Shown here in pieces: positions 9,718 through 26,791 of a DNA stretch of 32,000 bases. Below the pieces are notes generated by a model, which worked only from the letters and a program-made list of their open reading frames with translations, was not told the origin of the DNA and searched no databases. The DNA is taken from positions 233,958 through 265,957 of the forward strand of contig JALDQZ010000004.1 in assembly GCA_031316145.1 (NCBI GenBank). The letters are read 5' to 3'. The DNA comes from Candidatus Brocadiaceae bacterium. GTDB taxonomy: Bacteria > Planctomycetota > Brocadiia > Brocadiales > Brocadiaceae. How positions within the stretch are numbered: the stretch's first letter is position 1; each line of letters starts with the position of its first letter. The position numbers were made by a program, and so were the translations under genes.

Positions 9718-9813
9718 AAACAACATTGGTGTTGTAAGATTCGTTCCTTTACAGGAATTTTCTTCTCCCTTCTTTTTAAACGATTAAATAAGTACTACTA
9801 CTAAAGAGTAATC

Positions 9814-10095: not shown

Positions 10096-10186
10096 ACCAC
10101 CCGTTTGAAATACTGGAATGCCTGCAACTATTTTTTTCCGGTGTGCTTACCACAGTGAGTAGACCGTAACGATAACACGTTTATTT

Positions 10187-11425: not shown

Positions 11426-11561
11426 AAAGCTTTTTTCATAATCAACGTTCGTATTCTCATTTTTGTCTTTATTCCACCATACCCCTTGTGCCCAATCTAG
11501 AATCTGGAATAAGCTTTTTTACGGGGAATTTTCTCAACGAAATTCTTCTGGCAAGCATCGA

Positions 11562-12773
11562 TCATTCCAGCTTAGTAAATATCGTCGTAGCATTATTGCC
11601 ACCAAAGGCAAACGAATTATTAACAATACTCCCTACCTTTGCTTCACGCGCCTTATTGGGTACAATGTCAAGATCACATTCCGAGTCAGGTGTTTCATAG
11701 TTTATTGTCGGAGGTATAATTCCATGTCTGAGCACCAAACAGCATATAATTGATTCCACGGCGCTCGCCGCACCCATAAGATGCCCAATCATTGATTTTG
11801 TCGAACTGCAGGGAATTTTACAGGCATATTCCCCGAAAACATGTTTTATAGCAAGGGTCTCTGTCTTATCATTATGCGGTGTACCTGTACCGTGCGCATT
11901 AATATAATCGATATCCGCGCAGGAAAGTCCAGCCATTTTCATGGCGTTGCTCATGCATTTTATTGCGCCTTCTCCTTTTGGATGCGGCGCTGTCATATGG
12001 AACCCATCGCAACTTAACCCATAACCAGCCATCTCCGCAATAATCTCCGCCCCGCGATTTTTCGCGAACTCATACCGTTCCATAATCAGTATTCCAGCCC
12101 CTTCTCCTATCATAAGTCCTTTGCGATTTTTATCAAAAGGCTGGCAACGGTCGGGGGCCAACGCCTTAAGGTTATGGAAGTGGGTAAATTCTGTTTGCGG
12201 AATCATGTCTCCTCCGCCAACCATGATCACATCCATCTTGTTTTCTGCAAGAAGGTCATAGGCCCAGGCAATGGCATGATTCCCTGAAGAACAGGCGTTG
12301 AGAGATACCATCGTCGGACCTTCAAAATCAAAATGCTGAGCTAATACGTTTGTAATGGAATTCGGAGGATAGACAGCCGCAACGATCGTATCAAACCCAT
12401 TATCCTTTTTTAAAGTATACCGCCTCAAACGTCTCTCAAAAGGTGTTAACTCTGCCGCAAGCGTACCAATGGTGATACCGAAGCGTTCTCTGTTAAACCC
12501 TTTTGCCTCTAATAAACCACTTTCCTGTAATGCCTCCCGAGCAGCATAATAAACATATTTATGGATGGTATTTTCTTTTATCTGATTTTCAAGCCCCACC
12601 TCCAAATCAAAATCCTTTACCTCACAAGAACGATGAACCTTATATTGAGAAGTATCAAAGGACTTCATTTCATTGGCGCCATCACGTCCACCGATAAATG
12701 ATTCCCAGCTTTTTCTTACACCTATTCCAACAGGTGTGACCAAACCCATACCGGTAATAACGACTTTCCGCAT
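11562..12773 (-). CDS. Beta-ketoacyl-[ACP] synthase (FabF/FabB family) with intact catalytic triad
   Basis: 403 aa. MRKVVITGMGLVTPVG, active-site LNACSSGNHA (Cys161), INAHGTGTPHND, KSMIGHLMGAASAVE and the NSFAFGGNNATTIF C-terminus. Confidence 0.9.
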   Translation of the reverse strand: MRKVVITGMGLVTPVGIGVRKSWESFIGGRDGANEMKSFDTSQYKVHRSCEVKDFDLEVGLENQIKENTIHKYVYYAAREALQESGLLEAKGFNRERFGITIGTLAAELTPFERRLRRYTLKKDNGFDTIVAAVYPPNSITNVLAQHFDFEGPTMVSLNACSSGNHAIAWAYDLLAENKMDVIMVGGGDMIPQTEFTHFHNLKALAPDRCQPFDKNRKGLMIGEGAGILIMERYEFAKNRGAEIIAEMAGYGLSCDGFHMTAPHPKGEGAIKCMSNAMKMAGLSCADIDYINAHGTGTPHNDKTETLAIKHVFGEYACKIPCSSTKSMIGHLMGAASAVESIICCLVLRHGIIPPTINYETPDSECDLDIVPNKAREAKVGSIVNNSFAFGGNNATTIFTKLE

Positions 12774-12832
12774 GATTTTATATCTTCAAAAGTATCATGT
12801 TAATTCACCAACGCGCCAGGAATGCATAAAAT

Positions 12833-12879
12833 AAGAGAGGCCAACTATTCGCCCGAAACGAATATGTTGACCTTCTCTT
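12833..12879 (-). terminator. Imperfect hairpin between the radical SAM gene and the KS gene (possible attenuator/terminator)
   Basis: The minus strand reads AAGAGAAGGTCAACATATTCG-tttcggg-CGAATAGTTGGCCTCTCTT followed by ATTTTAT. The stem has mismatches and bulges. Confidence 0.3.
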
Positions 12880-12948
12880 TTCTTGCGAGCAGCCCCGCGC
12901 ACTCACACCATGTAACTACTTTTCCTTATTTTTGAGAAAAGATAGATA

Positions 12949-14430
12949 TTACGTTGAGACCTCTATCGGCGTCAAGTCAGGTTTTTCCCCATGCTTTTTT
13001 GCATACTCGTAGCGCTGTAAAGCATCGTCATAATATCCGGAGGTCTGTAATTCTTTTAAATTCTGAATCAAGTGTTGATAGACACTCTGCCAATCCAGAT
13101 TTACCCTGAAAGCAAACATTGCAGCATTCATATTATTATTCAATTCATCCTTGGCGCTGTGAAATCTTTTTCGAAGTATCTCAGTGGAAAAGATCTTATC
13201 ATATAAATACTGAAAACCGTTGATAAGGTCCTGAAGTGACAAACTTTTCAATATATAGGTAAGATGATGCGACGTATAATATTTCCAGTCTTCGGGAAAA
13301 TTTGTCCTAAAAAGCCTGCCATCTCTCTTTAATCGGTTGTATAGAGGCGTATTGATAAAAGGACATAAGATGCCACACGTCATGATGTCAATGTGGGAAT
13401 TTAAAATAAAATCGGCAACCTTTTTAAACGTGTCTGGAGTATCGGCATCGTTTCCAAATACCATAGTACCCCATACCGCAAGTCCATGCTTCCGAATATT
13501 TGCAATAGCTTCAAAATAATTTTCAGTGGAAATTCGCAGGTTAACATTTTTATTCATCGTCTTAAGCGCTTCTTCTTCAATAGATTCGATACCGATCAAA
13601 ACTCCCACGCACCCGCTCTTTGCCATATACTCAAGAGTTTCATCGTCTTTATATATGTTAAGAGAGGTAAAACCAAACCAGTTCTGATAAATACCTCGTT
13701 CTACCATGCCTTTAAAAAGGTCTCTCACACGTTCGTTGGATTTTTTACTATGCCCGTAAAAATTCTCATCCGTCAAAATCAAACCACGATATTGCCCGTT
13801 AATGGATTCGAATTCGTCTAAGACGTCCTCTATCGGTCTTTCACGATATTTTCTCCCCTGGAACTGAGGTACTGAACAAAATTCACAACTGAACGGACAC
13901 CCGGCTGTTGTTATAATTCCGGAGTATCGATATTTATATTTATCCTTTAAAAACTTCCTATCAGACCGCAAGCCATGGTAAATATCCATAGAGGTAAGAC
14001 CGCCGTCATATCTCTTTTGGAGGCAACCATTTTCAAAATCATCAAGGATTTTTTCCCAAAGGGTCACCGCTTCCCTGATTACAACGCAATCAACATATTT
14101 TTCTACCTCTTCGGGAAAGCTCGTGGCATGAATACCCCCCATAATTACCGGAATCCCTCGTTTTTTACACGCAGCAGCAATCTTATATGCACGGTGGGCC
14201 TGATAACTAACGGAAGTAATACCAACCAGGTCAGCGCCTTCAAAAGTAATATCCCCGGTATTTTCATCTATGGCATATTCCTGTGTTTCATCTATAATAT
14301 CAACTTTCCAGTGTGCCGGAGTTAACGCTTTCAGATAACCCAGATTAACCGGCATTTGATTTAACACAGAAACGTTTTCCTCTCCAACATTGCCAATCGG
14401 ATGAGGATTAATAAGAACCAGTTTTTTCAT
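12949..14430 (-). CDS. B12-binding-domain radical SAM enzyme (class B rSAM)
   Basis: 493 aa. The N-terminal cobalamin-binding-like Rossmann segment reads DLVGITSVSYQAHRAYKIAAACKKRGIPVIMGGIHATSFPEE. It is followed by the radical SAM cluster motif CPFSCEFC (CxxxCxxC) and a GVLIGIES-type barrel strand. The ATG at 14430 overlaps the acpS stop (ATGA). Confidence 0.85.
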   Translation of the reverse strand: MKKLVLINPHPIGNVGEENVSVLNQMPVNLGYLKALTPAHWKVDIIDETQEYAIDENTGDITFEGADLVGITSVSYQAHRAYKIAAACKKRGIPVIMGGIHATSFPEEVEKYVDCVVIREAVTLWEKILDDFENGCLQKRYDGGLTSMDIYHGLRSDRKFLKDKYKYRYSGIITTAGCPFSCEFCSVPQFQGRKYRERPIEDVLDEFESINGQYRGLILTDENFYGHSKKSNERVRDLFKGMVERGIYQNWFGFTSLNIYKDDETLEYMAKSGCVGVLIGIESIEEEALKTMNKNVNLRISTENYFEAIANIRKHGLAVWGTMVFGNDADTPDTFKKVADFILNSHIDIMTCGILCPFINTPLYNRLKRDGRLFRTNFPEDWKYYTSHHLTYILKSLSLQDLINGFQYLYDKIFSTEILRKRFHSAKDELNNNMNAAMFAFRVNLDWQSVYQHLIQNLKELQTSGYYDDALQRYEYAKKHGEKPDLTPIEVST

Positions 14431-14864
14431 GTATAGACCTCTGCATTCTCAGTGGTTAATTTGTTTTCGCAAAATTTCTGCACCGCCTTGGGAATTAATA
14501 ATACCTGAGCAATAGCATATTCTTTACAATGAGATAAAGAGACCTTCGCATTGCCAATATTTTTTTTCTCCACTAATTCTTTCACCATCCCATAGAAATT
14601 CAAATATGGTTTCCCTTTTTCATTATTTAAAAGTTCTATATCCGTCCATTTCATGGCACCAACCCATCCGGTGCCTAATGCCTTAAACATGGCTTCCTTT
14701 GTGGCAAAACGCGCAGCATAATGCTGAAACCTGTTCTTCTTTGGGTTACAGTATTGTATTTCTTTTTCCGTATAGATTCTTTTTAAAAATGCCTCATTTG
14801 CAGAAAACAATCTTTCAATACGTTTTATTTCTATTATATCTATACCAATATCCATACGATGCAA
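14427..14864 (-). CDS. acpS: Holo-[ACP] synthase (4'-phosphopantetheinyl transferase, AcpS type)
   Basis: MDIGIDIIEIKRIERL..., FTEKEIQYC, ARFATKEAMFKALG and SLSHCKEYAIAQVLL match the AcpS pattern. The likely true start is ATG 14855 (MDIGID). The C-terminal ~15 aa extension overlaps the rSAM start. Confidence 0.8.
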   Translation of the reverse strand: MHRMDIGIDIIEIKRIERLFSANEAFLKRIYTEKEIQYCNPKKNRFQHYAARFATKEAMFKALGTGWVGAMKWTDIELLNNEKGKPYLNFYGMVKELVEKKNIGNAKVSLSHCKEYAIAQVLLIPKAVQKFCENKLTTENAEVYT

Positions 14865-15075
14865 TCGTTGCTAAATGATTGTAACTACTTATTACATAAG
14901 TATCTGTTACCGTAAACTGGCATTGTACAAGTTTACAAAATCAATGTCAATGACAAATTCATCCATGAGCACATATATACTGCTCTTTTAGCGGATATCA
15001 TGAGAAGTATCCGAAAAAGTTCTCTATTCGTGAATGTTTAACTGGCAAGCATCACTCTATCTGTTCCATTCTACC

Positions 15076-16062
15076 TTAAGAACCAAGAAATCGTATAAAA
15101 TGCATTAAGAGTTTCTCATTGAAGCTCCCTTCCATCTCATTTTTCATCATTTTCAATGCAGTAAAAGGTTTTCTCGCATCGGAATAAGATCTTCTTGTCG
15201 TCAAGGCATCATACACATCCACAATACACGCAAGCTGCCCGTATTTATGGATATCCTCCCCTTGTAACCCGCGTGGATAACCTTTGCCACTGTATTTCTC
15301 ATGATGTTGTGCAACTGAATACAATGAACGAGTATCCAGACCACCAACATTTTCTAGAATTTCAACGCCAAATGCTACATGCTCTTTCATTTTTTCAAAC
15401 TCCTCTTCCGTGAGACTTCCTTCTTTATTAACTATTTCTGATACAATCCGGGTTTTCCCTACGTCATGCAGCATCATTCCAGTCCCTACGGAGTAGAGTT
15501 CATCAATAGAAAATCCCAGATATCTTGAGAATGCCAAACCTAAAACAGACACATTCACTGAATGTGTATAGGTATAATAATCATACGAAAGTACGTTTAT
15601 CAAAGAACGAGATGCATCCTTATTGTTTATAATAAACTCTACGGTATTTGAGATCAATTCCCTGGAATGCGCTATATTTTCACCAGAACGCGGATTTTTC
15701 AAAACATCCACCATAATATTTTTTGCTAGGTCATAGACAATACCTGCCTTTTCCTCGGTTTTCAACGTACCATCGTGAATTATCTTCTTTAAAGACGATT
15801 CTAAATACTGGAAAAATTTTTGGCAATCTTCCTTGCGTATATACAACCTTTCAACGTGTTCCTTTAACAATCTATCGATTTTGCTTGTATTAATAAGGGT
15901 TTCACCACTTACATAGAGTACAAACTGTTCCTTGTTGTTTACACAAAGTTTAAGAAAAATATCACACCCTACACAGGTATTACAACGTATGGTTTTCAAC
16001 AGTATGGGAATATAATTATCCGTAATGCTTACACTTATCTGCGTGTCTCTTTTATTCTTCAT
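15076..16062 (-). CDS. HD-GYP domain protein (probable c-di-GMP phosphodiesterase) with uncharacterised N-terminal domain
   Basis: Contains the HDVGK and HHEKYSGKGYPRGL motifs. The ~140-aa N-terminal region has no motif I recognise. Confidence 0.8.
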   Translation of the reverse strand: MKNKRDTQISVSITDNYIPILLKTIRCNTCVGCDIFLKLCVNNKEQFVLYVSGETLINTSKIDRLLKEHVERLYIRKEDCQKFFQYLESSLKKIIHDGTLKTEEKAGIVYDLAKNIMVDVLKNPRSGENIAHSRELISNTVEFIINNKDASRSLINVLSYDYYTYTHSVNVSVLGLAFSRYLGFSIDELYSVGTGMMLHDVGKTRIVSEIVNKEGSLTEEEFEKMKEHVAFGVEILENVGGLDTRSLYSVAQHHEKYSGKGYPRGLQGEDIHKYGQLACIVDVYDALTTRRSYSDARKPFTALKMMKNEMEGSFNEKLLMHFIRFLGS

Positions 16063-16465
16063 TTTTCCGATTATTCGTTAAACATATAGGACATAGACAA
16101 AGTACCATACGGTGAGCGAGCTTGTCAACTTCAGCCTTTCTTACGGCAGGGCTTTTTTACACAGAAAAACTATATAATAATTCCTTTAAAATATTTTGTT
16201 TGAGTTTGTATCATACACAATCTAATATATTCCCTGTGAGATTTTTGTTGATGTTCTGAACATTTTATTACCCAAACATGGTCTCTTTTTCGATGAAAGC
16301 AACGATAATTACAGGGAAATTTTCATACGTTATCCGTACAGACAAGACGGGAGGGAGATTTCCCTTGCGAAAACAACTGTTCAGTTTGTAACAAAAATCT
16401 CATCCATTCTTATTCACTGTTACTGCAAATCCCTGTAAAATCCTGCTATTGAAAGATAGTATTCG

Positions 16466-18880
16466 ATGATATTTGTTATCCTTTTTATAATTATTTCAAC
16501 AATAACAGGATTTTTACTTACGTATTTTCTTGCATCTTCGTACTCATTGTTTGAAAGGATTGCCTATGGTTTAGTTATTGGTCTGGGTCTTCATACCTGG
16601 GTTGTTTACCTTTTTTCATTTCTTTGGGGACTCACGTTCATAAGCATATTCATTACCATTGCTGTATCACTTGTGTTTTGTTCACTATTTACAACCGTAC
16701 AATGGAGTAGCTTTAAACGTGATGTCCTTTTTGAACTGAGACGCACAAAAAATGATTTCCTTTTAAACAAAAAATCCTGCTTTGTCCACATTGCAGTCTT
16801 TTCCTTCTTTACTACGATCTTTTACCGTCTGTTTTACAGAATAATACTCTGGAAAAATGATGGAATGTACATCGGACTGCCAAATAATTACGGTGATTTA
16901 CCCCTTCATTTGGGTTATATCACATCCTTTGTGTGGGGAAATAACATTCCCGCGCAAGATCCTTCGTTCGCAGGCGAAAAACTGAAGTATCCCATCCTCT
17001 CCGATTTTTTGTCCGCCGTATTTCTTACCATGGGCGCTGACTTCAAGCAAATACTCTTCATCCCGGGACTCTTGTTAAGCATTGGTTTTTGCTGTGTTCT
17101 CTATTACTTTACGTATCGTCTGACAAAAAGAAGGCTTGCGGCAATTGTTTCATTGTTTTTATTCTTTTTTTCCGGCGGGTTTGGCTTTTACTATATCATT
17201 CAGGACTTTACAAATTACTCACATGGTTTTTGGTCGTTCCTTACCCATTTACCACGAGACTATACAAAAATCACATCCTTTAATTACCACTGGATTACAC
17301 CATTAACATGCCTTACTATACCCCAGAGATCATTTCTTTTTGGATTTCCTTTTACGATTTTAATCTTTTCTTTGTTATACACAGGTATTGAAGAAAAAAA
17401 CCGGAGAGAATTTCTCTTTGCCGGTATCCTTGCCGGTGCGCTTCCTTTCCTTCATACCCATAGCTTCCTTGCCATGTTAATGGTTACCATACCCCTGGGC
17501 TTCATATTTTGGAACTGGAGGAATTGGCTTGCATTCTTTCTCCCCGCTTTTGTCCTCTCGTTTCCTCAGGTATATTGTCTTTCAAGCAACGTTCGTGGTG
17601 GAAGTTTTTTTGCATTACACACGGGATGGATGGCGGGAAAAGAAAATTTTTTTTGGTTTTGGTTAAAAAATACCGGTCTTTTCTGGTTCGCGGTCTTCGG
17701 TGGATTTGCAATTGTTTTTACCGCAAACAAAAAATTAACCAACCGGGTCCTGATGCGTACGGGACTATTCTCACTACCATTTTTATTCCTTTTTCTCTTA
17801 CCGAATTTTCTCCTTTTTGCTCCATGGGCATGGGATAATATAAAGATTTTCATTTATTGGTTTCTCGGTACCAGCCCGCTTGCGTCTCTCGCTCTAATTC
17901 GCCTATATGAGTACAAACGCCTTACAATTATCTCGAAAACATCCTTTTGTATTCTCATGCTTTCTTTAACCGCTGCGGGAGGAGTTGATATTTTCAAATA
18001 TGCCATTGTCCCTGTTAACGGATGGAAAGAATTTAGCCGTGAAGAAATAATGCTTGCAAAACGTATTTCAGAAGAAACCCCTGTAAACGCGATTTTTCTC
18101 AATGCTCCCATATTCAATCACCCTGTGTTTCTCTCCGGAAGGATATCATTGATGGGCTACATGGGCCACATATGGAGCCACGGCTACAAGGATGGTTCCG
18201 GTCGCGAGCAAGATATCAAAAAAATGCTCCGTGGTTCACCCGAAGCGCTATCGCTTATTAACACATATAAACCTCACTATGCGATCCTAGGTCCGCATGA
18301 AAAACGCGTCGGGGCAAAAAGAATATTTTTCGACAAAAATTTTACGTGTGTTATTACTACAAAAAAATATAGAATTTACGATCTTACTAAAAAGAACCAA
18401 TTTAGCACGCAAAAAAACGAAGGGTTTTCCGATAAGACTGAGCACCATTCTTTAAACCAAAATAATGGACTTCTCGTTTGTTATTATGATACGATATCTT
18501 GGGAAGGTGATCCCATATTTGAAGAAATTAACCCGTCTATTACTATTAATTATTCTGATGAAGATGAAAAACCGATCAATAGCCCTTTTAGTGTAATCTG
18601 GAAGGGATATATAGATGTTGATGTTTCCGGCAAGTATACATTCAGGCTGACCTCCGACGATGGCTCCTGGCTTTACATTGATAATACCATGGTGATAAAT
18701 AACGGCGGACATCATAGCAGGAAAACTCTCGAAGGAACCATAACCCTGAACAAGGGCAAACACACAATTATGGTTAAATATTTTGATGCCGGGGGAGGCG
18801 CCATTCTCAGTCTCTTATGGAAACCACCAAATGCCTCAGAATCAGAGATTCCTGCGCATGTTTTGTCTCCATCTCAATAA
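16466..18880 (+). CDS. Polytopic membrane protein (GT-C-like glycosyltransferase suspected) with C-terminal PA14 domain
   Basis: 804 aa. The first ~510 aa are a run of hydrophobic helices (judged by eye), with a loop motif NNYGDLPLHLGY. A soluble region follows, and the last ~137 aa are PA14-like. The GT-C assignment rests on architecture and on paralogy of the C-terminal module with the next gene. Confidence 0.65.
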   Translation: MIFVILFIIISTITGFLLTYFLASSYSLFERIAYGLVIGLGLHTWVVYLFSFLWGLTFISIFITIAVSLVFCSLFTTVQWSSFKRDVLFELRRTKNDFLLNKKSCFVHIAVFSFFTTIFYRLFYRIILWKNDGMYIGLPNNYGDLPLHLGYITSFVWGNNIPAQDPSFAGEKLKYPILSDFLSAVFLTMGADFKQILFIPGLLLSIGFCCVLYYFTYRLTKRRLAAIVSLFLFFFSGGFGFYYIIQDFTNYSHGFWSFLTHLPRDYTKITSFNYHWITPLTCLTIPQRSFLFGFPFTILIFSLLYTGIEEKNRREFLFAGILAGALPFLHTHSFLAMLMVTIPLGFIFWNWRNWLAFFLPAFVLSFPQVYCLSSNVRGGSFFALHTGWMAGKENFFWFWLKNTGLFWFAVFGGFAIVFTANKKLTNRVLMRTGLFSLPFLFLFLLPNFLLFAPWAWDNIKIFIYWFLGTSPLASLALIRLYEYKRLTIISKTSFCILMLSLTAAGGVDIFKYAIVPVNGWKEFSREEIMLAKRISEETPVNAIFLNAPIFNHPVFLSGRISLMGYMGHIWSHGYKDGSGREQDIKKMLRGSPEALSLINTYKPHYAILGPHEKRVGAKRIFFDKNFTCVITTKKYRIYDLTKKNQFSTQKNEGFSDKTEHHSLNQNNGLLVCYYDTISWEGDPIFEEINPSITINYSDEDEKPINSPFSVIWKGYIDVDVSGKYTFRLTSDDGSWLYIDNTMVINNGGHHSRKTLEGTITLNKGKHTIMVKYFDAGGGAILSLLWKPPNASESEIPAHVLSPSQ
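18467..18877 (+). other. PA14 domain-coding segment of the 16466..18880 gene
   Basis: GLLVCYYDTISWEGDPIF...PFSVIWKGYIDVDVSGKYTFRLTSDDGSWLYIDNTMVINNGGHHS...GKHTIMVKYFDAGGGAILSLLWKPP. This is the classic PA14 pattern: W-G-Y, tandem-Asp DDG segment, Y-I-D-N, and G-G-x-x-x-L-x-W. Confidence 0.8.
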
Positions 18881-18897
18881 ATTTATAAAGAAATTCT

Positions 18898-19010
18898 GTA
18901 ACTATTCAGCGTAATATATCAAACTACCAGAATACGCATTCGGGTAAGAAACCAGACAGAACCCTGTCAGGGTTAAAACACAGACTGAAATGTTTGCGCT
19001 GAATAGTTAC
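18898..19010. mobile_element. 113-bp MITE-like non-autonomous element (14-bp perfect TIRs, 8-bp target-site duplication GAAATTCT)
   Basis: GTAACTATTCAGCG (18898-18911) is the exact reverse complement of CGCTGAATAGTTAC (18997-19010). GAAATTCT directly flanks both ends (18890-18897 and 19011-19018). The element has no coding capacity. Its interior carries the AACCCTGTCAGGGTT palindrome (18960-18974). Confidence 0.75.
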
Positions 19011-19092
19011 GAAATTCTTTTATTTCATTACTCCTTAAAATACGTATGACTACATTGAAGCCATTTTAAAAAAAGGAACCGGACCTTAATTC

Positions 19093-21087
19093 ATGGAAAA
19101 GTATAAAAAACAAAATATTTATGTATGTATCTCTTTTTTTGTGCCCGTATTCATTGCTTCTTTCATTCGCTTCTGGGATCTGGACCTCAGGCCTTTTCAT
19201 GCCGATGAAGGCGTAAACAGCAATTTTTTATTAAATTTATATAATAAAAACTACTATCACTATAACCCTGCTAATTACCACGGACCATTCCTTTATTATA
19301 TTGGATTAATTCCTTTCTATATTTTTGGAATTTCAGACTTCTCTTTTCGGCTTATGCCGGTTCTGTTTGGCATTATGAATGTTGCCCTATTGTATCCTTT
19401 AAGGAGAAGACTGGGGAATATGGGCATTTTGACGGCGGGATTGCTTGTTGCCCTGTCTCCTGCGATTTCTTTTTTTTCAAGAGACACCATCCATGAAACA
19501 TATTTGATCTTTTTTTCACTATCGGTAATTGTTTCATTCTTTCTTTATTCGGAGACAAGGAAATCACTATATATCTATTTCGCGGTTTCGAGTCTTGCCT
19601 TCATCATCACGATAAAAGAAACGTATATAATTACTTTTGCTGTTTTTATACTATCGTTAGCGCTTGCATATTGTTATGAAATTGCATTCCTTTCAACAAA
19701 AGGAACCAGAGTCTTTGCGATAAAAAACATACTCACCGCATTTGTCACAAACTGCAAGCAGCATACATACACTATAGGAATAAGTATCGGCATTTTTCTC
19801 CTGATCAATTTTTTATTGTTTTCCTCTTTTTTTACATATTTTGAAGGTATTACCGGTATATTAACTACCTTGAAAATCTGGACAAAGACAGGCACTCATT
19901 CCGGCGGGCATGCCAAACCATTCATTTACTATTTTACCTTACTGCGTAAATTTGAACTCCCCATACTGGTTATGGGTATTATGGGGTTTTATTATGCCTT
20001 CCGGCAGGGAAATAAATTTACCACATTCTTATCTTTTTGGACTATTTTCATATACGTTATCTACTCCTTCATTCCATATAAAACACCCTGGTTAATTGTA
20101 AACATTCTTCTGCCATTGTCTATCATGGGAGGTATTTTTATTCATGGCGTTTTCAAAACAATCAGGAAAAAATGGCATTATGTGACCTTTTATTCACTCT
20201 ATGTATGCATTTTTGGGTTTTTTGCGTATCAGTCCATTCTATTGAATTTTGTCAATTATGATGACGAACGCTACGAATTGGTATATGTTCAAACCAAAAG
20301 AGATATCTACAACCTCATAGACAGAGTGGAATCCCTTGCCAAAGCATATGGAAACGATTTGACTATTAACATTGCCTCAAAATCATACTGGCCGCTACCC
20401 TGGTATTTCAGGAACTATAAAAATGCCCAGTTTTGGGGTCGTACTATCAGCAATCCAAATGCACCAATTATTCTTGTAGACAAGAATAATGAAGCAGAAT
20501 TAAACAAACGATTAAAAAGCGAATACGTAAAAGAGCGTTTTGTTTTGCGCCCCGGTGTTTGGATCACCGCATATTTCCAGGAGGGCCTTTACGAGGCAGT
20601 ATTTGGAAAAAAATCCACAAAAAAGGAGGAGGACCTACCGATTATTATATCGGAAAGAGAACTGACTCAAGGATTAAGTGTAAGGCGTTTTTATAATATC
20701 GATTGTATCGGAACGCCTTTCTCTTCAGGAATAGAAAAAGAGTCTATTTCATTTTCCTATAATGACGAAACAAAGAAACCGTATAGATCACCTTTCGCCA
20801 TCGAGTGGGAGGGTTATCTTTCCGTTCCAAGAAAGGGTCTATACCAGTTTGCGACAAGGTCTGACGACGGTTCTGAAGTTTATATTGATAATAAACTGGT
20901 TGTTGATAATGGCGGGCCTCACGCATTACGCTATATTTCAGGGATTGTACCACTGGACGCGGGTTTTCATGCGCTCAGAATAAAATACTTCGATATAGGA
21001 GGCGGTGCTGTTATGGAATTTTTATGGAAACCACCTGAGGAAAACGAAACGCGGGTGCCACATACAGTACTCTTTCACAGGAAATGA
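19093..21087 (+). CDS. GT-C-fold glycosyltransferase-like membrane protein (PMT/ArnT-like, TIGR03663-like) with C-terminal PA14 domain
   Basis: 664 aa. The N-terminus reads RFWDLDLRPFHADEGVNSNFL...YNPANYHGPFLYY, an acidic first-loop DE motif typical of GT-C enzymes. Many TM helices follow. The soluble C-terminal part contains YWPLPWYFRNY, and the last ~138 aa form a PA14 domain. Confidence 0.7.
   Translation: MEKYKKQNIYVCISFFVPVFIASFIRFWDLDLRPFHADEGVNSNFLLNLYNKNYYHYNPANYHGPFLYYIGLIPFYIFGISDFSFRLMPVLFGIMNVALLYPLRRRLGNMGILTAGLLVALSPAISFFSRDTIHETYLIFFSLSVIVSFFLYSETRKSLYIYFAVSSLAFIITIKETYIITFAVFILSLALAYCYEIAFLSTKGTRVFAIKNILTAFVTNCKQHTYTIGISIGIFLLINFLLFSSFFTYFEGITGILTTLKIWTKTGTHSGGHAKPFIYYFTLLRKFELPILVMGIMGFYYAFRQGNKFTTFLSFWTIFIYVIYSFIPYKTPWLIVNILLPLSIMGGIFIHGVFKTIRKKWHYVTFYSLYVCIFGFFAYQSILLNFVNYDDERYELVYVQTKRDIYNLIDRVESLAKAYGNDLTINIASKSYWPLPWYFRNYKNAQFWGRTISNPNAPIILVDKNNEAELNKRLKSEYVKERFVLRPGVWITAYFQEGLYEAVFGKKSTKKEEDLPIIISERELTQGLSVRRFYNIDCIGTPFSSGIEKESISFSYNDETKKPYRSPFAIEWEGYLSVPRKGLYQFATRSDDGSEVYIDNKLVVDNGGPHALRYISGIVPLDAGFHALRIKYFDIGGGAVMEFLWKPPEENETRVPHTVLFHRK
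20671..21084 (+). other. PA14 domain-coding segment of the 19093..21087 gene
   Basis: GLSVRRFYNIDCIGTPF...PFAIEWEGYLSVPRKGLYQFATRSDDGSEVYIDNKLVVDNGGPHA...GFHALRIKYFDIGGGAVMEFLWKPP. It aligns residue-for-residue with the PA14 segment at 18467-18877. Confidence 0.8.
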
Positions 21088-21134
21088 ATTACATCTGACA
21101 ACTAGATATTTCCTTATTTTCGTGTTATAAAAAT

Positions 21135-21878
21135 TTATTGATAGTGCCCCTGATAATCTTTGATCCTTATATTGACCAGGTCCTTAAACATCTGTAAAGA
21201 GTGTTTTATTGGGCTAACTGTGCTTAACGCAGAATTTTCCCAACGAATGGGCACTTCTTTGATTTTATAATGATGTTTTTGCGCAAGATACAGGGCTTCA
21301 ACGTCAAAGGAAAAACCGTGAATCCTGCATCTGTTAAATACCTTTTTCGCAACATCCTTCTTGAATCCTTTAAACCCGCATTGCGTATCTATAATCCCTT
21401 TAAACAATAGTAAATTCACCATACCGTTAAAAATTTTCCCCATTTTTTCTCTATACCAGGGTTGACGAATGATAATATCAGCCCCTTTTTTACTTCTGGA
21501 CCCGATTACTACATCATAACCATTTATAAGATACAACAGACATTTATCAATTTCTTCAATTGGAGTTGAGAGGTCCGCATCGGTAAAAAAAATATATCTT
21601 CCCTCTGCCGATAACATGCCTCTTCTGACGGAGTACCCTTTTCCCATATTCCTCCTATTCGGGAAAACAACTATGTGTTCCTTTAAACGCATATAATCAT
21701 GTATCACCTGTAATGTATTATCCGTGGAACCATCATCTATAATGATAATTTCGTAGGAAAATTGTTGTTTGTCAAGATACTCGCAAATCTTCTCCAGGGT
21801 GGGTAGGACCCTCTTTTCTTCATTATAAGCAGGTATAATTAATGAAAGATAACAGGTGGTCAATGTTTGTATACCCAT
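21135..21878 (-). CDS. GT2 polyprenyl-phosphate glycosyltransferase (dolichyl-phosphate beta-glucosyl/mannosyltransferase-like)
   Basis: 247 aa. LSLIIPAYNEEKRV, IIIDDGSTDNT, FFTDADLSTP (the DxD region) and QCGFKGF. This matches the DPM1/ALG5/ArnC/GtrB-type soluble GT2. Its ATG shares one base with the gspF stop (TAATG at 21880-21876). Confidence 0.8.
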   Translation of the reverse strand: MGIQTLTTCYLSLIIPAYNEEKRVLPTLEKICEYLDKQQFSYEIIIIDDGSTDNTLQVIHDYMRLKEHIVVFPNRRNMGKGYSVRRGMLSAEGRYIFFTDADLSTPIEEIDKCLLYLINGYDVVIGSRSKKGADIIIRQPWYREKMGKIFNGMVNLLLFKGIIDTQCGFKGFKKDVAKKVFNRCRIHGFSFDVEALYLAQKHHYKIKEVPIRWENSALSTVSPIKHSLQMFKDLVNIRIKDYQGHYQ

Positions 21879-23080
21879 TAAAATTTTAGATCGTTGACAC
21901 TGAGTATTGCGGTTAACATGGAAATTACGATTACACCAATAACAGCGCCCATCAACAATATAAGCACCGGTTCCACCATGGTAACAAGTCGTTTCATTCT
22001 CTGTTCCACATCAGCATCAAAATTATCCGCCACTTTGAGAAGCATCTGGTCAAAAGTACCTGTTTCTTCACCTACCTTCAATAAATGAACTGCAAGTTCT
22101 GGTAAATAACCCCGCTCTGCAAGTGAAACAGTAAGGCTTGCGCCTTCTTTCACATTCGCCTTAACATTTCCCAGAATATTCACCAGATGTTGATTGGATA
22201 GAACATCTTTCACAATATCCATTGATTTAAGCAAAGGCACGCCGTTTTCCAATAAAGTGCCAAGGGTTCTGGCAAACCTTGCTATTTGCATTCTCCACAA
22301 AAGATCGCCGAACAGTGGTAATTTTAATTTTTTTTGATCTATTTTAATGGCCGTTTTACGCTCTTTCATAGCTCTTTTATATAAAAAAACCGCAGCAATA
22401 AGCAGAACAATTGCCATCCAGCCATATTTTATAGAGTACTGACTTACTCCCATGAGGAGCATTGTCGAAAAGGGAAGCGCAATCCCCATGCCTTCAAAAA
22501 TTTGTGTAAATTTTGGTATAACATAAACAATGAGAGCCCCCACTGAAATAATACCCGTACTACTCAATAAAAGCGGGTAGATCATTGCAGAAATAATTTC
22601 ACCTTTTACTTTTTGCAATCTTTCCTGAAATGACCCCAACCTTTTCAATACCTGAGGCAACACACCGCCTTCTTCTCCCGCGCGTATCATATTAATATAG
22701 ATAGTAGAAAATAGTTTGGCATGGTTCTCAAGCGCTTCGGCAAAGGGCTTCCCCGATTTAATACCCTTCAGAAGATCCTCGATAACGGTTTTCAATGCAA
22801 TTTTATCATTACCGGCCACTAATATGGACAAACTTTTATCGAGAGGGATACCACCTTCAAGTAAAGTTGACAATTCCTGAGTAAAGGGTAATATAGCTTT
22901 TTTATTGGCACGATTCAGGAAAAAACCAAATTTTTTATGCTTATCTACCTGATAAATATGTAAAATAATATGACCTGATCTACGAAAATCCTTGATCAGA
23001 TCGGTTTTATTATCAGCCTCTTTTTCCCCTTCAACAATGCCGCTTGAGTTTGTCAATAATTTATATTTATAGGTATGCAT
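21878..23080 (-). CDS. gspF: Type II secretion / type IV pilus platform protein (GspF/PilC family)
   Basis: 400 aa with two T2SSF repeats (FTQELSTLLEGGIPLDKSL... and FARTLGTLLENGVPLLKSM...) and three TM segments. Confidence 0.85.
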   Translation of the reverse strand: MHTYKYKLLTNSSGIVEGEKEADNKTDLIKDFRRSGHIILHIYQVDKHKKFGFFLNRANKKAILPFTQELSTLLEGGIPLDKSLSILVAGNDKIALKTVIEDLLKGIKSGKPFAEALENHAKLFSTIYINMIRAGEEGGVLPQVLKRLGSFQERLQKVKGEIISAMIYPLLLSSTGIISVGALIVYVIPKFTQIFEGMGIALPFSTMLLMGVSQYSIKYGWMAIVLLIAAVFLYKRAMKERKTAIKIDQKKLKLPLFGDLLWRMQIARFARTLGTLLENGVPLLKSMDIVKDVLSNQHLVNILGNVKANVKEGASLTVSLAERGYLPELAVHLLKVGEETGTFDQMLLKVADNFDADVEQRMKRLVTMVEPVLILLMGAVIGVIVISMLTAILSVNDLKF

Positions 23081-23086
23081 ACACCA

Positions 23087-23728
23087 TTATTTCTTTATAT
23101 TTGAACGCATAACGACAACATGCTCTTCACCATACCAATCAAGTAAAATACGATCCTCTTCTATATTCTTTACCTTGTAGTCTGCGATCTCTTCTCCTTC
23201 CTCAATAAAGACAAAGTTTTTATTGTTATTTTTCTTGTCAGGATTAACAATTAACGCTTTTTTGGTATCACCAAAAATTACAATTCCGTGTAATGTAATC
23301 TCCATCGGTTTCCCTTTCGGTTTCTCTTTCGGTTCTAATGTTTGTTTCGATTTTGCTAGATTGTTTTCTTTTTTTTGCGACACTTCAAGTGGTGGAATTT
23401 TGCTTTCTTCAGGAGCATGCCATGTTTGGCGGCCTGGAGAAAAAGGATTGTGCGTCAGAATACCTTCATACTGATCAATCAATTTCCTGTCTTCTTCTAA
23501 AAATATTAACGACGTTTGATCTTTAGAATGCTCTCCACTATCCTTTATTGATTCAATTGTATCTGTCGGCGGATAATAAACAAACTTTACACACAAAACA
23601 GCAAGACCAACGACACAAACAAGTAAAACAAGATTTATAATGGGCAAATAGTGTTTCCAGCGTCTCAACTGTTTCCCGGCATCTCCCATGAAACGCAACA
23701 GCGCTGTTTTATTTATGGTGAATTTCAT
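23087..23728 (-). CDS. GspC/PilP-like bitopic protein of the secretion operon
   Basis: 213 aa. It has an N-terminal TM anchor (LPIINLVLLVCVVGLAVLCV), a Lys/Glu/Pro-rich linker and a C-terminal small beta domain (ITLHGIVIFGDTKKALIV...EIADYKVKNIEEDRILLDW). The beta domain resembles the secretin-interacting HR/PilP domain. Confidence 0.4.
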   Translation of the reverse strand: MKFTINKTALLRFMGDAGKQLRRWKHYLPIINLVLLVCVVGLAVLCVKFVYYPPTDTIESIKDSGEHSKDQTSLIFLEEDRKLIDQYEGILTHNPFSPGRQTWHAPEESKIPPLEVSQKKENNLAKSKQTLEPKEKPKGKPMEITLHGIVIFGDTKKALIVNPDKKNNNKNFVFIEEGEEIADYKVKNIEEDRILLDWYGEEHVVVMRSNIKK

Positions 23729-23733
23729 GTTTT

Positions 23734-24336
23734 TTATAATTTTTTTTCTATGGCGGCGATCGCAGTTAATGTAGAACTCATAGATGCTCCTTTTATTACA
23801 TTCAATCCTATGGTTTTTATTCTAAGGTTGTTGAGAAAAAGAAGTTTTTCATTATTGCATTCTATATCGTATAAGAATTTCTGCATTTTCTGTATGCTAT
23901 CCAAATCGCGTATTTCAAAATTAATTGATAAAGCAATCAGGTAAGGCGCTTTGTTAATTACCTCTTTTTTTAATGATGTACTCCTGGAAACACTCAATCC
24001 ATTCTTCTTTGCCAAAGTATTGACTATTTCCTGCAACTTCGCGGAAGCAAGCTCTTCTGTTTCTTCAAACAAAAATTTATCTTGCAATTGCGCATAATAG
24101 TGTTCCAGGTCTTTCACTCGTTCCTCATAGTGTTTTTTCTGTGCGACAAAAGCGTGGTATTTCCCCAACAGCTTTTTTTGTGTATCTAGCAGCTCTCTCG
24201 TCTCGTTAATTGACTTAAAAAACGGACTTATTGCAAACCTGTCAACGCCAAAATAAAGTACGACAACGGATGCGGTAACTATTAATATTTTTTCTCGTAG
24301 GTTATATTTTCCAAATATCTCAAAAAGTCTTTCCAT
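23734..24336 (-). CDS. GspM/PilO-like inner-membrane assembly protein
   Basis: 200 aa. It has a short cytoplasmic N-terminus, one TM (ILIVTASVVVLYFGV), a coiled coil and a C-terminal alpha/beta domain. Its position after the GspL-like gene supports the call. Confidence 0.5.
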   Translation of the reverse strand: MERLFEIFGKYNLREKILIVTASVVVLYFGVDRFAISPFFKSINETRELLDTQKKLLGKYHAFVAQKKHYEERVKDLEHYYAQLQDKFLFEETEELASAKLQEIVNTLAKKNGLSVSRSTSLKKEVINKAPYLIALSINFEIRDLDSIQKMQKFLYDIECNNEKLLFLNNLRIKTIGLNVIKGASMSSTLTAIAAIEKKL

Positions 24337-24339
24337 GCT

Positions 24340-25608
24340 TTATTGTTTTACCAGATTTCCTTTTATTCGAAAACTTTCCTCATCATTCCGTGTTTTTGTA
24401 ACGGGGGAGGACAAACCCACACCTGAAAAAAGCGGTGAATTTTCCAGTATTGGGATCAGGTTCGCGGAAGATTCTGCAATGCCCTCTATTTCAAAAGTAT
24501 TGTGTGTGAGGTTAATGGCCTTTGTCCATGCATTATCCGGCAACTTCTTTGCCAATTCTGAGATCGCATCAATTCTTGGAACATGTTTTTCTCTTAATTC
24601 ATTGACGTTTCTGACCGTTTCTTCAAGTATTGACATTCGCTCTTTTATTCTATCAACAACAACAACATTTCTTTTCACCGAATTTATACGGGTCTTAACC
24701 GTTTGCAAAAGAGACAGATCATTACATTTCTGGATATAAGGAATAAGAAATACAAAAAATATTAGTATCCCCGCAAGAAAACACAACAACGTCATTTGAG
24801 GGTTTAATCGCCTGTTGCGTGACTTAATCAGGCTGAGGCCGCAATGGTACGATGATAAACCATACAGCGCCGCGCCATATGATTCGGCCCCTTCATCCAA
24901 CACCCGTACCTTCTCTTTATATTCAGCGGATAAAAAATTGCCTTCGACGCCTTCTAAATAAATTACGCTCGGAGCATTTGTTTCCAAATGAGTAACCAAC
25001 CCTTCACGTTTTTTAACAACTGAAGTGCAAACCAAATGACCGTGTTCAAAAATATTATAACAATAATTGTTTGGATTCTTCGTAATCACGGCGACAGATT
25101 CATTATTTTCACCAAGAATCGGCAAAAAAGCAAATGAGGATATAATTACCCTTGAAGGTGTAATTTCCATCAGCTTCAACTTTGACAGGATGCTATCCAA
25201 CTCAATTTTTTTTACGGCAACAATGAGTACATTTGTTTTTCGTCCTATATGAGACAAGGAGTGAATATCATAATACACGTCTTCATTCGTAAAGGGAATA
25301 AAGCTGTCTAATTGATATTCAAGTGCATCCCTGAATTCTTTAAGATTAGCATGCGGACATTCTATTTCCCGTATGATACACCTGCTTCTCGGTAATGAAA
25401 GGATTGTCTCTCCAACAGGTATTCTTTGCTGTATTAATGCATGGCTTAATTGAAAGTCTTCTTTTAATAGAAAATCTTTCACCCTGAACGTAAAAGGTAA
25501 ATAGGTAATCAATTTTTTCCTGACGATTGTTAGTACAAGATCATTTCCACAGATAGACAAACCTGTAGCGCTGGGAAAAAACATATTAACAAATGGTACA
25601 TTTTGCAT
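24340..25608 (-). CDS. GspL-like protein (PilM-like cytoplasmic domain + TM + PilN-like periplasmic domain)
   Basis: 422 aa. The N-terminal actin-like PilM/GspL region is followed by a TM segment (MTLLCFLAGILIFFVFLIPYI). Then come a coiled coil and a C-terminal PilN/GspL periplasmic-type domain (NTFEIEGIAESSANLIPILENSPLFSGVGL). Confidence 0.6.
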   Translation of the reverse strand: MQNVPFVNMFFPSATGLSICGNDLVLTIVRKKLITYLPFTFRVKDFLLKEDFQLSHALIQQRIPVGETILSLPRSRCIIREIECPHANLKEFRDALEYQLDSFIPFTNEDVYYDIHSLSHIGRKTNVLIVAVKKIELDSILSKLKLMEITPSRVIISSFAFLPILGENNESVAVITKNPNNYCYNIFEHGHLVCTSVVKKREGLVTHLETNAPSVIYLEGVEGNFLSAEYKEKVRVLDEGAESYGAALYGLSSYHCGLSLIKSRNRRLNPQMTLLCFLAGILIFFVFLIPYIQKCNDLSLLQTVKTRINSVKRNVVVVDRIKERMSILEETVRNVNELREKHVPRIDAISELAKKLPDNAWTKAINLTHNTFEIEGIAESSANLIPILENSPLFSGVGLSSPVTKTRNDEESFRIKGNLVKQ

Positions 25609-25729
25609 TCAGCAGCACCTTATTACCTTAAAACAAAGAAAAGACGTTATTCATTTGTGTATAACAATGACGAAATTTCTATCGTTTTTCCGTATTCAGC
25701 CGGATAAATATTGTAGTGCAATGTAACGA

Positions 25730-26791
25730 TTATTCCGGGTATACGGCAACGATTCTAAAATGTTGTATCCCCTTTAAAACAATCATCTTGTATGAATTTT
25801 GTATGCCGTCTGCGGAAGATATTGAATTGATCGTTACATAATTTGAATCGTATACCGTCAAAAAGTCCAGTATTTTGTGAAAATTCGATCCAACAATACC
25901 AAAACTTCTAAATAACTCCTTCAGTTCACCAAATTCTTTAATTTTTCCCTGTTCCTCTCTGAGTGTTATTATTCCTTCGGCTATTTCCGGAGTAATCAAA
26001 GGCACGTATTGTAACACCTCCCTGGAAGCGTAGTTTACATTTATTTTTCCAGACCCATACATCGTTACATGTTCCCGTAGCATTTCATATATTTTTGGTG
26101 TAACACCTTTCACAAGGGCTAATTCCTCAATAGTTTCAAAGGGACCATTCTTCGCTTCGTATGGATCTGGCAGCGTCGCATAATAATCACTCTCCGCACC
26201 GTTGATATGGTGTAAGCTGTCCTTATCTACCCAATCTAATATAGAACCTGTTATCGTATCAGCATCGATTTCGCTGATAGTTAAAGAAGTAAGAAATTTG
26301 ATAAACCCTTCTCTTGTATCATCTTTTATTCCATTTATATTTATTTTTCCATTTTCATCACTAATGTATACATCGCAATTCCCCCCCCCTATTTCAACAG
26401 AATAGGGATTACTGCTCGGCCCCCACGGTTTATTTTTCAATCTTGAAAAAAGGTCTTCCTCATCCCCTTCTTTCTCTATTATGGCATCCCCCCCATCGTT
26501 TGTTTTCTTTTCCTGCTCTTCCGGTAGTAATATCATCTGTGTTGCATATAAACAAGCGCCTCGTGCGGCGTATATATTTTTTATACGCTCCGAATATGCA
26601 ATTTCTGTCTTTATCGCTATACCCGTATCAAGGGAAAGATTTAAGGAAATAAAGCCTAATATGACTATTGCCCATAAACTAAAAATGAGTACATAGCCAT
26701 GATTGGTGACAAAAATTCTTGATCCTCTCCGTTTTTTGATATGGACAATTTTATCGCCACAGGAATTTTTTCGATGATTTTCTCTTTCCAT
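25730..26791 (-). CDS. gspK: Minor pseudopilin GspK
   Basis: 353 aa. It has an N-terminal hydrophobic helix (GYVLIFSLWAIVILGFISL) and a helix-hairpin-helix-like segment (KINVNYASREVLQYVPLITPEIAEGIITLREEQG) characteristic of T2SS protein K. The only canonical start upstream of the helix is ATG 26791, which gives a 127-nt overlap with the preceding gene. Confidence 0.7.
   Translation of the reverse strand: MERENHRKNSCGDKIVHIKKRRGSRIFVTNHGYVLIFSLWAIVILGFISLNLSLDTGIAIKTEIAYSERIKNIYAARGACLYATQMILLPEEQEKKTNDGGDAIIEKEGDEEDLFSRLKNKPWGPSSNPYSVEIGGGNCDVYISDENGKININGIKDDTREGFIKFLTSLTISEIDADTITGSILDWVDKDSLHHINGAESDYYATLPDPYEAKNGPFETIEELALVKGVTPKIYEMLREHVTMYGSGKINVNYASREVLQYVPLITPEIAEGIITLREEQGKIKEFGELKELFRSFGIVGSNFHKILDFLTVYDSNYVTINSISSADGIQNSYKMIVLKGIQHFRIVAVYPE

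Follow-up and report, generated by a model that had tools for sequence, protein, structure and literature searches.

A stretch of 32,000 nt from Candidatus Brocadiaceae bacterium (contig JALDQZ010000004.1, positions 233,958-265,957 of the forward strand), referred to below as the window, encodes two consecutive membrane proteins, A (open reading frame, ORF, 16466-18880) and B (ORF 19093-21087), and next to B a glycosyltransferase, GT2 (ORF 21135-21878). Both membrane proteins are predicted to combine a GT-C-type membrane domain with a C-terminal PA14 domain exposed to the periplasm. We regard it as fairly probable that A, B and GT2 form a periplasmic glycosylation module which would use a polyprenyl-phosphate-linked sugar, and in which the PA14 domains would hold the acceptor. 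The relevant features, with the evidence for them, are as follows.

16466-18880, plus strand: ORF A, 804 aa, predicted 14-helix GT-C-fold membrane protein that continues into a periplasmic alpha/beta domain and, behind a flexible linker, PA14 at the C-terminus (AlphaFold2 model, Foldseek, orthologues)
16466-18004, plus strand: membrane domain of A, residues 1-513 (helix list, positive-inside analysis, invariant columns)
18005-18400, plus strand: predicted periplasmic alpha/beta domain of A, residues 514-645 (secondary structure of the AlphaFold2 model)
18461-18853, plus strand: PA14 domain of A, residues 666-796 (PF07691, Foldseek)
19093-21087, plus strand: ORF B, 664 aa, predicted GT-C protein with 11 helices, family TIGR03663 (Agl23), continuing into a periplasmic domain and PA14 at the C-terminus
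19093-20253, plus strand: membrane domain of B, residues 1-387 (invariant columns, topology)
20254-20607, plus strand: predicted periplasmic alpha/beta domain of B, residues 388-505, with the YWPLPWY region (secondary structure of the AlphaFold2 model)
20650-21084, plus strand: PA14 domain of B, residues 520-664 (PF07691, identity to the PA14 domain of A)
21135-21878, minus strand: GT2 glycosyltransferase, 247 aa, without membrane helices, candidate polyprenyl-phosphate sugar synthase (PF00535, solved relatives)
21878-29958, minus strand: type II secretion operon (secretin GspD, pseudopilins, GspK, L/M-like genes, GspF) ending in GT2 (Pfam)

The ORFs of A and B, both on the plus strand, lie where an earlier reading of this DNA, made from the letters alone and called here the sequence-only reading, had placed them. 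Their start codons are sound, because orthologues of the same length align across 100% of each protein. The possibility of a pseudogene or chance ORF was ruled out, as A and B are found at full length and 49-71% identity in many anammox genomes. A and B are separated by 212 nt in the window (18881-19092), and the corresponding distance in orthologous loci ranges from overlap to separation (-64 to 473 nt). B and GT2 converge across a gap of 47 nt. Scans of positions 15900-22000, including the A-B gap, for promoter and terminator consensus sequences gave counts at background level.

By its profile match, B is a full member of family TIGR03663, whose current NCBIfam name is "flippase activity-associated protein Agl23". 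Residues 15-445 of B align with positions 4-433 of the 435 of the model at 261.8 bits (E 1.2e-77), twice the cut-off of 126.25, and PMT_2 of Pfam is matched at 38.4 bits against a cut-off of 26.1, in agreement with the PMT/ArnT-like, TIGR03663-type nature proposed for B at the outset. The AlphaFold2 (AF2) model of B (pLDDT 90.8, pTM 0.87, from 42 homologues) retrieved with Foldseek from the PDB the structures of ArnT (5f15; E 1.4e-9, TM-score 0.61), ALG12 (9s6t; TM-score 0.65), AglB and Pmt4, at a probability of 1.0. The membrane part of B is thus modelled as a GT-C fold with an acidic motif in its first extracytoplasmic loop. Its predicted topology, obtained from the AF2 helices and the positive-inside rule, comprises 11 transmembrane helices, with the Lys-rich N-terminus in the cytoplasm and the C-terminal alpha/beta and PA14 domains outside; the Arg/Lys-rich loops 101-107, 156-158, 201-223, 305-308 and 355-360 are all cytoplasmic.

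Almost all invariant residues of B are predicted to be periplasmic, in loops or at helix ends. The first periplasmic loop, which contains the PFHADEG motif (residues 34-40), features invariant H36, D38, E39 and G40, and H63-G64-P65 are likewise invariant (alignments of 22 and 42 sequences). Further invariant residues at periplasmic helix ends are R130/H134/E135, K175-E176-T177 and Y329-K330-T331-P332-W333, and P434, L435, W437, Y438 and R440 are invariant in the YWPLPWY region (432-438). The residues R26, D38-E39, H63-G64-P65 and R86, which are invariant in 22 diverse sequences of the B family, are those we take to be the signature of TIGR03663 near the N-terminus, i.e. a DE dipeptide, an HGP tripeptide and two Arg. 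The profile of the B alignment matches ArnT (E 1.5e-4); in an alignment of weak E-value, D38-E39 falls on the PDEG of the catalytic loop of Cupriavidus ArnT (its Asp55), and YKTPW of B on SKLPGY of ArnT.

The membrane part of A gave no match in Pfam or NCBIfam. Because a search of solved structures with the A-family profile yielded no meaningful match at the sequence level, assignment of its fold required an AF2 model (pLDDT 88.5, pTM 0.80, built from 48 homologues). Foldseek comparison with the PDB retrieved STT3 of the yeast oligosaccharyltransferase (8age_A; E 9e-8, TM-scores 0.41/0.50), the C-mannosyltransferase DPY19 (7zlg), PglB (3rce) and AftA (8if8; TM-score 0.50), all at a probability of 1.0, with Emb also among the structural matches. 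GT-C was the only membrane fold among the 50 matches listed for A, and the model thus portrays the membrane part of A as a GT-C fold. In both proteins, membrane parts matched GT-C enzymes only, and C-termini PA14 lectin or carbohydrate-binding-module structures only. A GT-C fold is thus predicted for both membrane domains, and both PA14 domains are predicted to be periplasmic from the AF2 helices and the positive-inside rule, as the sequence-only reading had anticipated.

The predicted topology of A comprises 14 transmembrane helices, a strongly basic amphipathic helix (80-100) on the cytoplasmic side, a loop (125-192) outside, and the C-terminal alpha/beta and PA14 domains also outside. The maps of both proteins are consistent in that all loops rich in Lys/Arg come to lie in the cytoplasm. 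The periplasmic loop carries the motif NYGDLPLHLGY (residues 141-151), which, like the two motifs of B given above, had been pointed out from the sequence alone; its N141, G143, D144, L145 and H148 are invariant in the 48 homologues. Other invariant residues in this set are Q287-R288, H330, P367-Q368 and W456-D457-N458-K460, and nearly all of them are predicted to lie in periplasmic loops or at the periplasmic ends of helices. The location of invariant residues in the models of A and B is the pattern expected for outward-facing active sites.

A and B were initially described as tandem paralogues. This holds for their PA14 domains only: the membrane parts gave no match in BLASTP and a probability of 0.8% in profile-profile comparison (hhalign), and come from two different families of predicted GT-C fold. 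Affinities of A to named families are remote. A itself gave no match at E <= 0.1 to the models TIGR03662 (Chlor_Arch_YYY) and DUF2298 (PF10060), and weak matches were obtained for 9 of its 48 homologues with TIGR03662 (best 2.4e-6) and for 5 of the 48 with PF10060 (best 2.1e-6). Positions 463-638 of the A-family hidden Markov model (HMM) align with residues 532-731 of a Spartobacteria DUF2298 protein at E 2e-10 in a single-target search (--max); with default filters, the same HMM found nothing in a genuine DUF2298 protein. The domain formed by residues 514-645 of A is the sole part with detectable similarity to genuine DUF2298 proteins. Judged from these profile searches, A is a remote relative and not a member of TIGR03662/DUF2298, and represents a separate, as yet unnamed sister family.

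The C-terminal domains are unambiguous. PF07691 is matched by residues 666-796 of A (84.4 bits, E 8.8e-24) and 554-654 of B (60.8 bits, E 1.6e-16), with a cut-off of 24 in both cases, and low-confidence linkers in the AF2 models (647-665 in A, 509-514 in B) lead to the domain. The two domains are clearly homologous, as originally claimed (42% identity over 155 aa, E 5e-36 in BLASTP), and the motifs quoted for them, W(K/E)GY, SDDGS, YIDN, NGG, KYFD-GGGA and LWKPP, were all found. In both proteins, the PA14 part matched in Foldseek searches the sensor dyad of RsgI3 (6qe7), the sugar-bound Marinomonas adhesin MpPA14, and the Epa and Flo adhesins; the profile of the B alignment matches the PA14 domain of RsgI3 (6qe7) at E 1.5e-36. 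SDDGSW, NGG-H and YFD are invariant in the PA14 domain of 20 A orthologues, and in the PA14 sets of both A and B, conservation of SDDGS and YFD is complete or reaches at least 90%. The DD of SDDGS presumably corresponds to the DcisD calcium/sugar site of lectin-type PA14 domains. Weak matches to GLEYA, a fungal lectin domain, were obtained for 9 of 48 family members.

The third gene, proposed early on as a convergent polyprenyl-phosphate GT2 adjoining B, is a genuine GT2 gene (PF00535, E 3.6e-32) whose product resembles polyprenyl-phosphate sugar synthases. Its closest solved relatives are Pyrococcus DPMS (5mlz, 7.9e-19), then ArnC (9hwj) and GtrB (5ekp), all of them polyprenyl-phosphate glycosyltransferases. 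The best NCBIfam match is the PgfS model (6.5e-21; 74.8 bits, cut-off 500). The haloarchaeal dolichyl-phosphate hexose transferase model NF041391 is matched over positions 3-210 of 213 (1e-17; 63.8 bits, cut-off 375), and the ArnC equivalog model at 71.6 bits (cut-off 529).

On the minus strand, GT2 at the same time closes a GspD-to-GspF operon, its ATG overlapping the stop codon of the upstream type II secretion system (T2SS) F gene. This operon looks complete, with a secretin, two pseudopilins, GspK, a PilM/N-like gene, a T2SS-M-like gene and GspF. In Brocadia and Kuenenia loci, the surroundings of GspF are preserved. T2SS genes are absent in the Anammoxibacter locus L017, and there GT2 still follows B. 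Because L017 keeps GT2 without T2SS genes, GT2 is linked to the A-B pair and not merely to the secretion operon. The ORF search placed a convergent GT2 orthologue immediately after B in 10 of the 13 anammox loci; tblastn added L011, at a contig end, and L018, in two frames, which brings the total to all 12 loci with sufficient room (L009 was left out, having no room downstream of B). In L018, a metagenome-assembled genome of Planctomycetia, the orthologue (14445-15153, minus strand) appears as two tblastn segments in different frames with 43-49% identity, which may reflect a frameshift, an assembly error or a decaying gene. As regards the trio logic of ArnC/ArnT or GtrB/GtrV that had been ascribed to this locus, the resemblance of GT2 to polyprenyl-phosphate sugar synthases and its retention beside A-B in anammox bacteria are supported; the layout is in part shared with the T2SS operon.

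The closest homologues of A and B are found in anammox Brocadiales (Brocadia, Kuenenia, Wunengus, Anammoxibacter), where they are 49-71% identical (49-66% for A orthologues), of full length, and all equipped with PA14, which assigns the window to an anammox bacterium. Beyond anammox bacteria, A homologues are 31-38% identical, occur mainly in Acidobacteriota (Pyrinomonadaceae, Blastocatellia), and end before PA14. TIGR03663 proteins are mostly without PA14, a few in Spartobacteria, Elusimicrobiota and unassigned metagenomes carrying one or two such domains. A scan of species-representative genomes provided 80 loci (13 anammox, 67 non-anammox), which were annotated with custom HMMs. A-PA14 is followed by B-PA14 in all 13 anammox loci. 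In 54 of the 67 non-anammox loci, A is directly followed by a TIGR03663 gene, usually with overlapping ORFs and with PA14 on neither. It follows from this survey that A and B constitute an old, tightly coupled two-gene module, and that the peculiarity of anammox bacteria is the addition of PA14 to both. A-then-B pairs occur without PA14 and without GT2; what is new lies in the addition of PA14 rather than in the pairing.

Other loci show related arrangements. On a Spartobacteria contig, there is overlap between a TIGR03663-PA14 gene and a genuine DUF2298 gene (PF10060, E 3.4e-85), and in locus L087 a GT2 gene lies directly after a TIGR03663 gene with two PA14 domains. On a non-anammox metagenome contig (L003, 2500-12955), an A homologue with a weak DUF2298 match is found amid three GT2 genes and GtrA-like, PMT and PMT_2 genes, a cluster that provides independent support for a role of A in lipid-linked-sugar glycosylation.

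Within the anammox lineage, PA14 domains extend beyond the A-B pair. A orthologues of Kuenenia carry two tandem PA14 domains and measure 947 aa (L006, 8001-10844; also L011, L013 and L016). In Brocadia, up to three extra PA14-bearing membrane proteins are encoded directly upstream of A (L005, 428-7916; L007, 3719-9728; L019, 8369-10447); none of these extra fusions is present in the window. The following types were found beside A-B in Brocadia loci.

829 aa: PMT_2 with two N-terminal PA14 domains
692 and 1168 aa: PMT_2 with a C-terminal PA14 domain
713 aa: A paralogue with PA14
699 aa: PA14 protein in which no other domain was identified

Brocadia genomes thus have PA14 on at least three further GT-C-type proteins (PMT/PMT_2) beside the locus; it would therefore seem that periplasmic GT-C enzymes of this lineage repeatedly have PA14 as an accessory. 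In a crude neighbour-joining tree (without bootstrap, the outgroup being picked by summed score), PA14 domains attached to GT-C proteins mostly cluster, apart from those of secreted multi-repeat proteins. The cluster includes anammox A, anammox B, non-anammox TIGR03663 fusions and two Brocadia PMT_2 fusions; the PA14 domains of the 1168-aa and 699-aa Brocadia proteins fall among the outgroups. This clustering suggests that the fused domains may share a class of ligand. A two-sequence PA14 profile found 31,107 representatives in a representative library, the top 150 being mostly multi-repeat secreted proteins. Ten of the shorter ones among these, scanned with Pfam, proved to be T9SS-secreted or otherwise secreted, and not GT-C fusions. 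GT-C fusions are accordingly a small minority of PA14 proteins in this library search, which is no census. When homologues were sought by PA14 alone, no more than 10 short fragments came back, which gave no view of architectures.

Starting from the folds, family membership, topology, conservation and gene linkage observed above, we infer the donor, the acceptor, the share of A and B in transfer, and sugar binding by PA14 as follows. At the membrane's cytoplasmic side, the soluble GT2 would take a monosaccharide from a nucleotide sugar and load it onto polyprenyl phosphate, as do DPMS, ArnC, GtrB and Agl22. The lipid-linked sugar would then reach the outer leaflet, possibly with the help of B as an Agl23-family protein. 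There, A and/or B would transfer the sugar onto an envelope glycoconjugate by means of pockets facing the periplasm, that of B with the invariant Asp38-Glu39 in the first loop and that of A with the invariant Asp144 in the equivalent long loop. The flexibly tethered periplasmic PA14 domain of each protein would act as a lectin, catching the glycan acceptor and keeping it near the active site. The likeliest acceptor would be the heavily O-glycosylated S-layer or extracellular polymeric substance (EPS) glycoprotein of anammox bacteria, or else another envelope polysaccharide. The conserved neighbouring GT2 is the basis for supposing that the GT-C proteins A and B use a donor linked to a lipid phosphate.

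Several points weigh against this model. The TM-scores of A are modest (0.41-0.50), A matches no curated family, and its Asp144 is a candidate counterpart of the catalytic Asp of GT-C enzymes by its predicted position in the loop. Matches of GT2 to NCBIfam equivalog models are all far under the cut-offs, it lacks the membrane helices of GtrB and ArnC, and it is located inside a T2SS operon, such that its link to A-B could be partly positional. An orthologue of the window GT2 was not found near the A-B pairs of Acidobacteria. Sugar binding by the PA14 domains of A and B is suggested by conserved motifs only, and some PA14 domains are not lectins, e.g. that of anthrax protective antigen, for which no lectin function is known. 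The sole experiments on the B family concern Haloarcula Agl23 and point to a flippase or scramblase, not to transfer. The acceptor, finally, is a guess, and the window contains no S-layer gene.

The experiments just mentioned lead to the most serious alternative, which we consider unlikely but by no means negligible. Labour would be divided as in Gtr systems: B, as a flippase or scramblase of Agl23 type, would move the polyprenyl-phosphate sugar that GT2 makes, A would be the only glycosyltransferase, and the PA14 domains would keep both proteins at one glycan. Besides the NCBIfam name of its family, B has an experimental precedent that the sequence-only reading missed. In Haloarcula hispanica, Agl22 (a GT2) and Agl23 are described as making, then flipping or using, hexose-phosphate-dolichol for N- and O-glycans outside the cell (Lu et al. 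2020, as reported in PMC11182771). Purified Haloarcula Agl23, tested in proteoliposomes, translocated the lipid-linked oligosaccharide M5GN2-PP-Dol, and in yeast Agl23 rescued deletion of rft1 (PMC11182771). By analogy, B may flip or hand over the donor instead of, or besides, transferring sugar. The tight, often overlapping pairing of A and B across phyla would also suit two proteins acting on one substrate stream. Nevertheless, a pure lipid scramblase has no need of the invariant ArnT/PMT-like Asp-Glu loop and the periplasmic invariant residues of B, and a periplasmic lectin domain on a flippase is hard to account for. Moreover, the yeast and liposome experiments involved a non-native substrate, and flipping and transfer are not mutually exclusive. 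The presence in B of a periplasmic domain of sugar-binding type together with an invariant ArnT/PMT-type loop argues, from sequence, for transfer within the Agl23 family.

Less probable again is a target other than a glycoprotein, such as a lipid (with lipid A or lipopolysaccharide core modified in the manner of ArnT), peptidoglycan or an exopolysaccharide, with PA14 serving as a polysaccharide anchor or sensor. ArnT, a modifier of lipid A, is the best structural match of B; the closest solved relative of the PA14 domains is the polysaccharide-sensing dyad of the anti-sigma factor RsgI3; and the A-B pair is widespread in Acidobacteria, a group not known for S-layers. The data fit all these acceptors alike, and the mechanism is that of the model preferred here, from which this proposal differs in the acceptor alone. 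That the PA14 domains are instead structural or protein-interaction modules, docking to the S-layer lattice or to each other and irrelevant to activity, is very improbable: although the anthrax domain has no known lectin function and A-B pairs of other phyla evidently function with no PA14, there is little or no variation at the DD and YFD positions, the presumed DcisD calcium site being among them, and both the GLEYA matches and the grouping of GT-C-fused domains in the tree, with its hint of a shared ligand class, are in line with lectins.

The proposed glycosylation module has elements in common with several known systems. As with Agl22/Agl23 of H. hispanica, B belongs to family TIGR03663 and is encoded next to a GT2 resembling polyprenyl-phosphate-hexose synthases, and a lipid-phosphate monosaccharide would be made inside the cell and used outside. 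Unlike the haloarchaeal system, the anammox module is bacterial and would use bacterial polyprenyl phosphate instead of dolichol, B ends in a PA14 domain, which is missing from most of the family members found, and has as its partner a second protein of GT-C fold, A. Agl23 has been described as a flippase, whereas the conserved periplasmic Asp-Glu loop and lectin domain of B suggest transfer. ArnC/ArnT and GtrA/GtrB/GtrV likewise combine a GT2 synthase with a GT-C transferase whose active site faces the periplasm; ArnT is the best structural match of B, its PDEG loop aligned with D38-E39, and ArnC and GtrB are matched by GT2. The window locus differs from these in having no gene for a GtrA- or ArnE/F-type flippase and two GT-C-fold proteins instead of one; its GT2 lacks the C-terminal membrane helices of ArnC and GtrB, and ArnT and GtrV lack a lectin domain. 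With TIGR03662/DUF2298 and TIGR03663 pairs, the locus shares its gene order, A taking the position of DUF2298 directly upstream, often overlapping, and a related C-terminal periplasmic domain, although A in the window matches neither upstream model.

Carbohydrate-binding modules are known from other GT-C enzymes, as in the mycobacterial EmbA/B/C and AftD proteins (periplasmic modules) and in eukaryotic PMTs (luminal MIR beta-trefoil domains). There too, a GT-C membrane domain is joined to an extracytoplasmic lectin-like module thought to hold the acceptor glycan; here, unlike there, the module is PA14, placed at the extreme C-terminus behind a flexible linker and found on several unrelated GT-C families in one lineage. 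The Pgf system for protein O-glycosylation in Streptococcus mutans consists of the GT2 PgfS and the GT-C proteins PgfM1 and PgfM2. Like the window, it has one GT2 with two GT-C membrane proteins, which in Pgf act on surface glycoproteins, and the PgfS model is the one that GT2 matches best. Differences are that Pgf proteins have no PA14 domain and that GT2 scores far under the PgfS cut-off.

The fusion had been put forward as uncharacterised. In full-text literature searches, no paper was found that pairs PA14 with GT-C or PA14 with anammox, and searches on TIGR03662, TIGR03663 and DUF2298 returned almost nothing. The proteins as such are not new, public annotations reading "PA14 domain-containing protein" and "TIGR03663 family / Agl23", but the fusion is neither discussed nor characterised in the literature searched. 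Precedent for the concept is greater than it had seemed, as GT-C enzymes with an extracytoplasmic carbohydrate-binding module, and the logic of a synthase combined with a GT-C protein, are already known. Absence of a GT-C fold, a cytoplasmic PA14 domain, or a common and functionally annotated architecture was in no case found outright.

Anammox bacteria have a central place in the nitrogen cycle and in wastewater treatment, and for their aggregation they depend on an S-layer and EPS glycoprotein with heavy glycosylation. The S-layer protein of Kuenenia is heavily O-glycosylated with complex chains on a HexNAc core bearing nonulosonic acids and with oligo-heptose chains (PMC5088730; bioRxiv 2020.12.03.409086); the glycosylation enzymes are not named in these two sources. 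For decorating the envelope, the present locus offers as candidate enzymes a synthase of lipid-linked sugar and two GT-C proteins facing outward, and all anammox loci sampled have them. It is of added interest for this retention, for the spread of PA14 over several GT-C families, and for its bearing on a question of archaeal and eukaryotic glycobiology, whether Agl23, recently used as a model flippase of lipid-linked oligosaccharides, is a flippase, a transferase or both. Moreover, the analysis defines an unnamed family of GT-C fold (A) paired with TIGR03663 across at least three phyla. It is tempting to speculate further, although we hold this to be doubtful, that one PA14 subfamily was copied onto unrelated GT-C enzymes (A, its paralogue, B and PMT/PMT_2) throughout the anammox lineage to yield a "lectin-guided" periplasmic toolkit, in which each enzyme recognises and processively extends an envelope glycan, and which would be the missing machinery for S-layer O-glycans. 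If so, the toolkit proteins would build such glycans, e.g. the oligo-heptose chains or additions to the complex HexNAc-core chains, and the fusion would serve as a "Rosetta stone" identifying Agl23/TIGR03663 proteins as outward-facing glycosyltransferases rather than dedicated flippases.

Upstream of A, the window contains on the minus strand a run of lipid-biosynthesis-type genes (3926-14864), reminiscent of the sets that have been proposed to make the ladderane lipids of anammox bacteria.

3926-4669, minus strand: SDR/FabG-like
4794-5663, minus strand: enoyl-CoA hydratase
5597-7639, minus strand: OYE-type FMN oxidoreductase fused to Pyr_redox_2
10187-11425 and 11562-12773, minus strand: two ketoacyl synthases
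12949-14430, minus strand: B12-binding radical SAM enzyme
14427-14864, minus strand: phosphopantetheinyl transferase

Within the same interval (7887-8735, minus strand) lies a gene for a Mut7-C RNase domain protein that begins with a ubiquitin-like Ub-Mut7C domain. The immediate neighbour of A, divergent from it across an intergenic region of 403 nt, encodes an HD_5/HD-domain, HD-GYP-like protein of 328 aa (15076-16062, minus strand), and is not conserved in Brocadia or Kuenenia loci. The sole RNA gene found in the window by Rfam and tRNA scans is a tRNA-Leu with anticodon GAG (30197-30286, minus strand), located far from the A-B locus.

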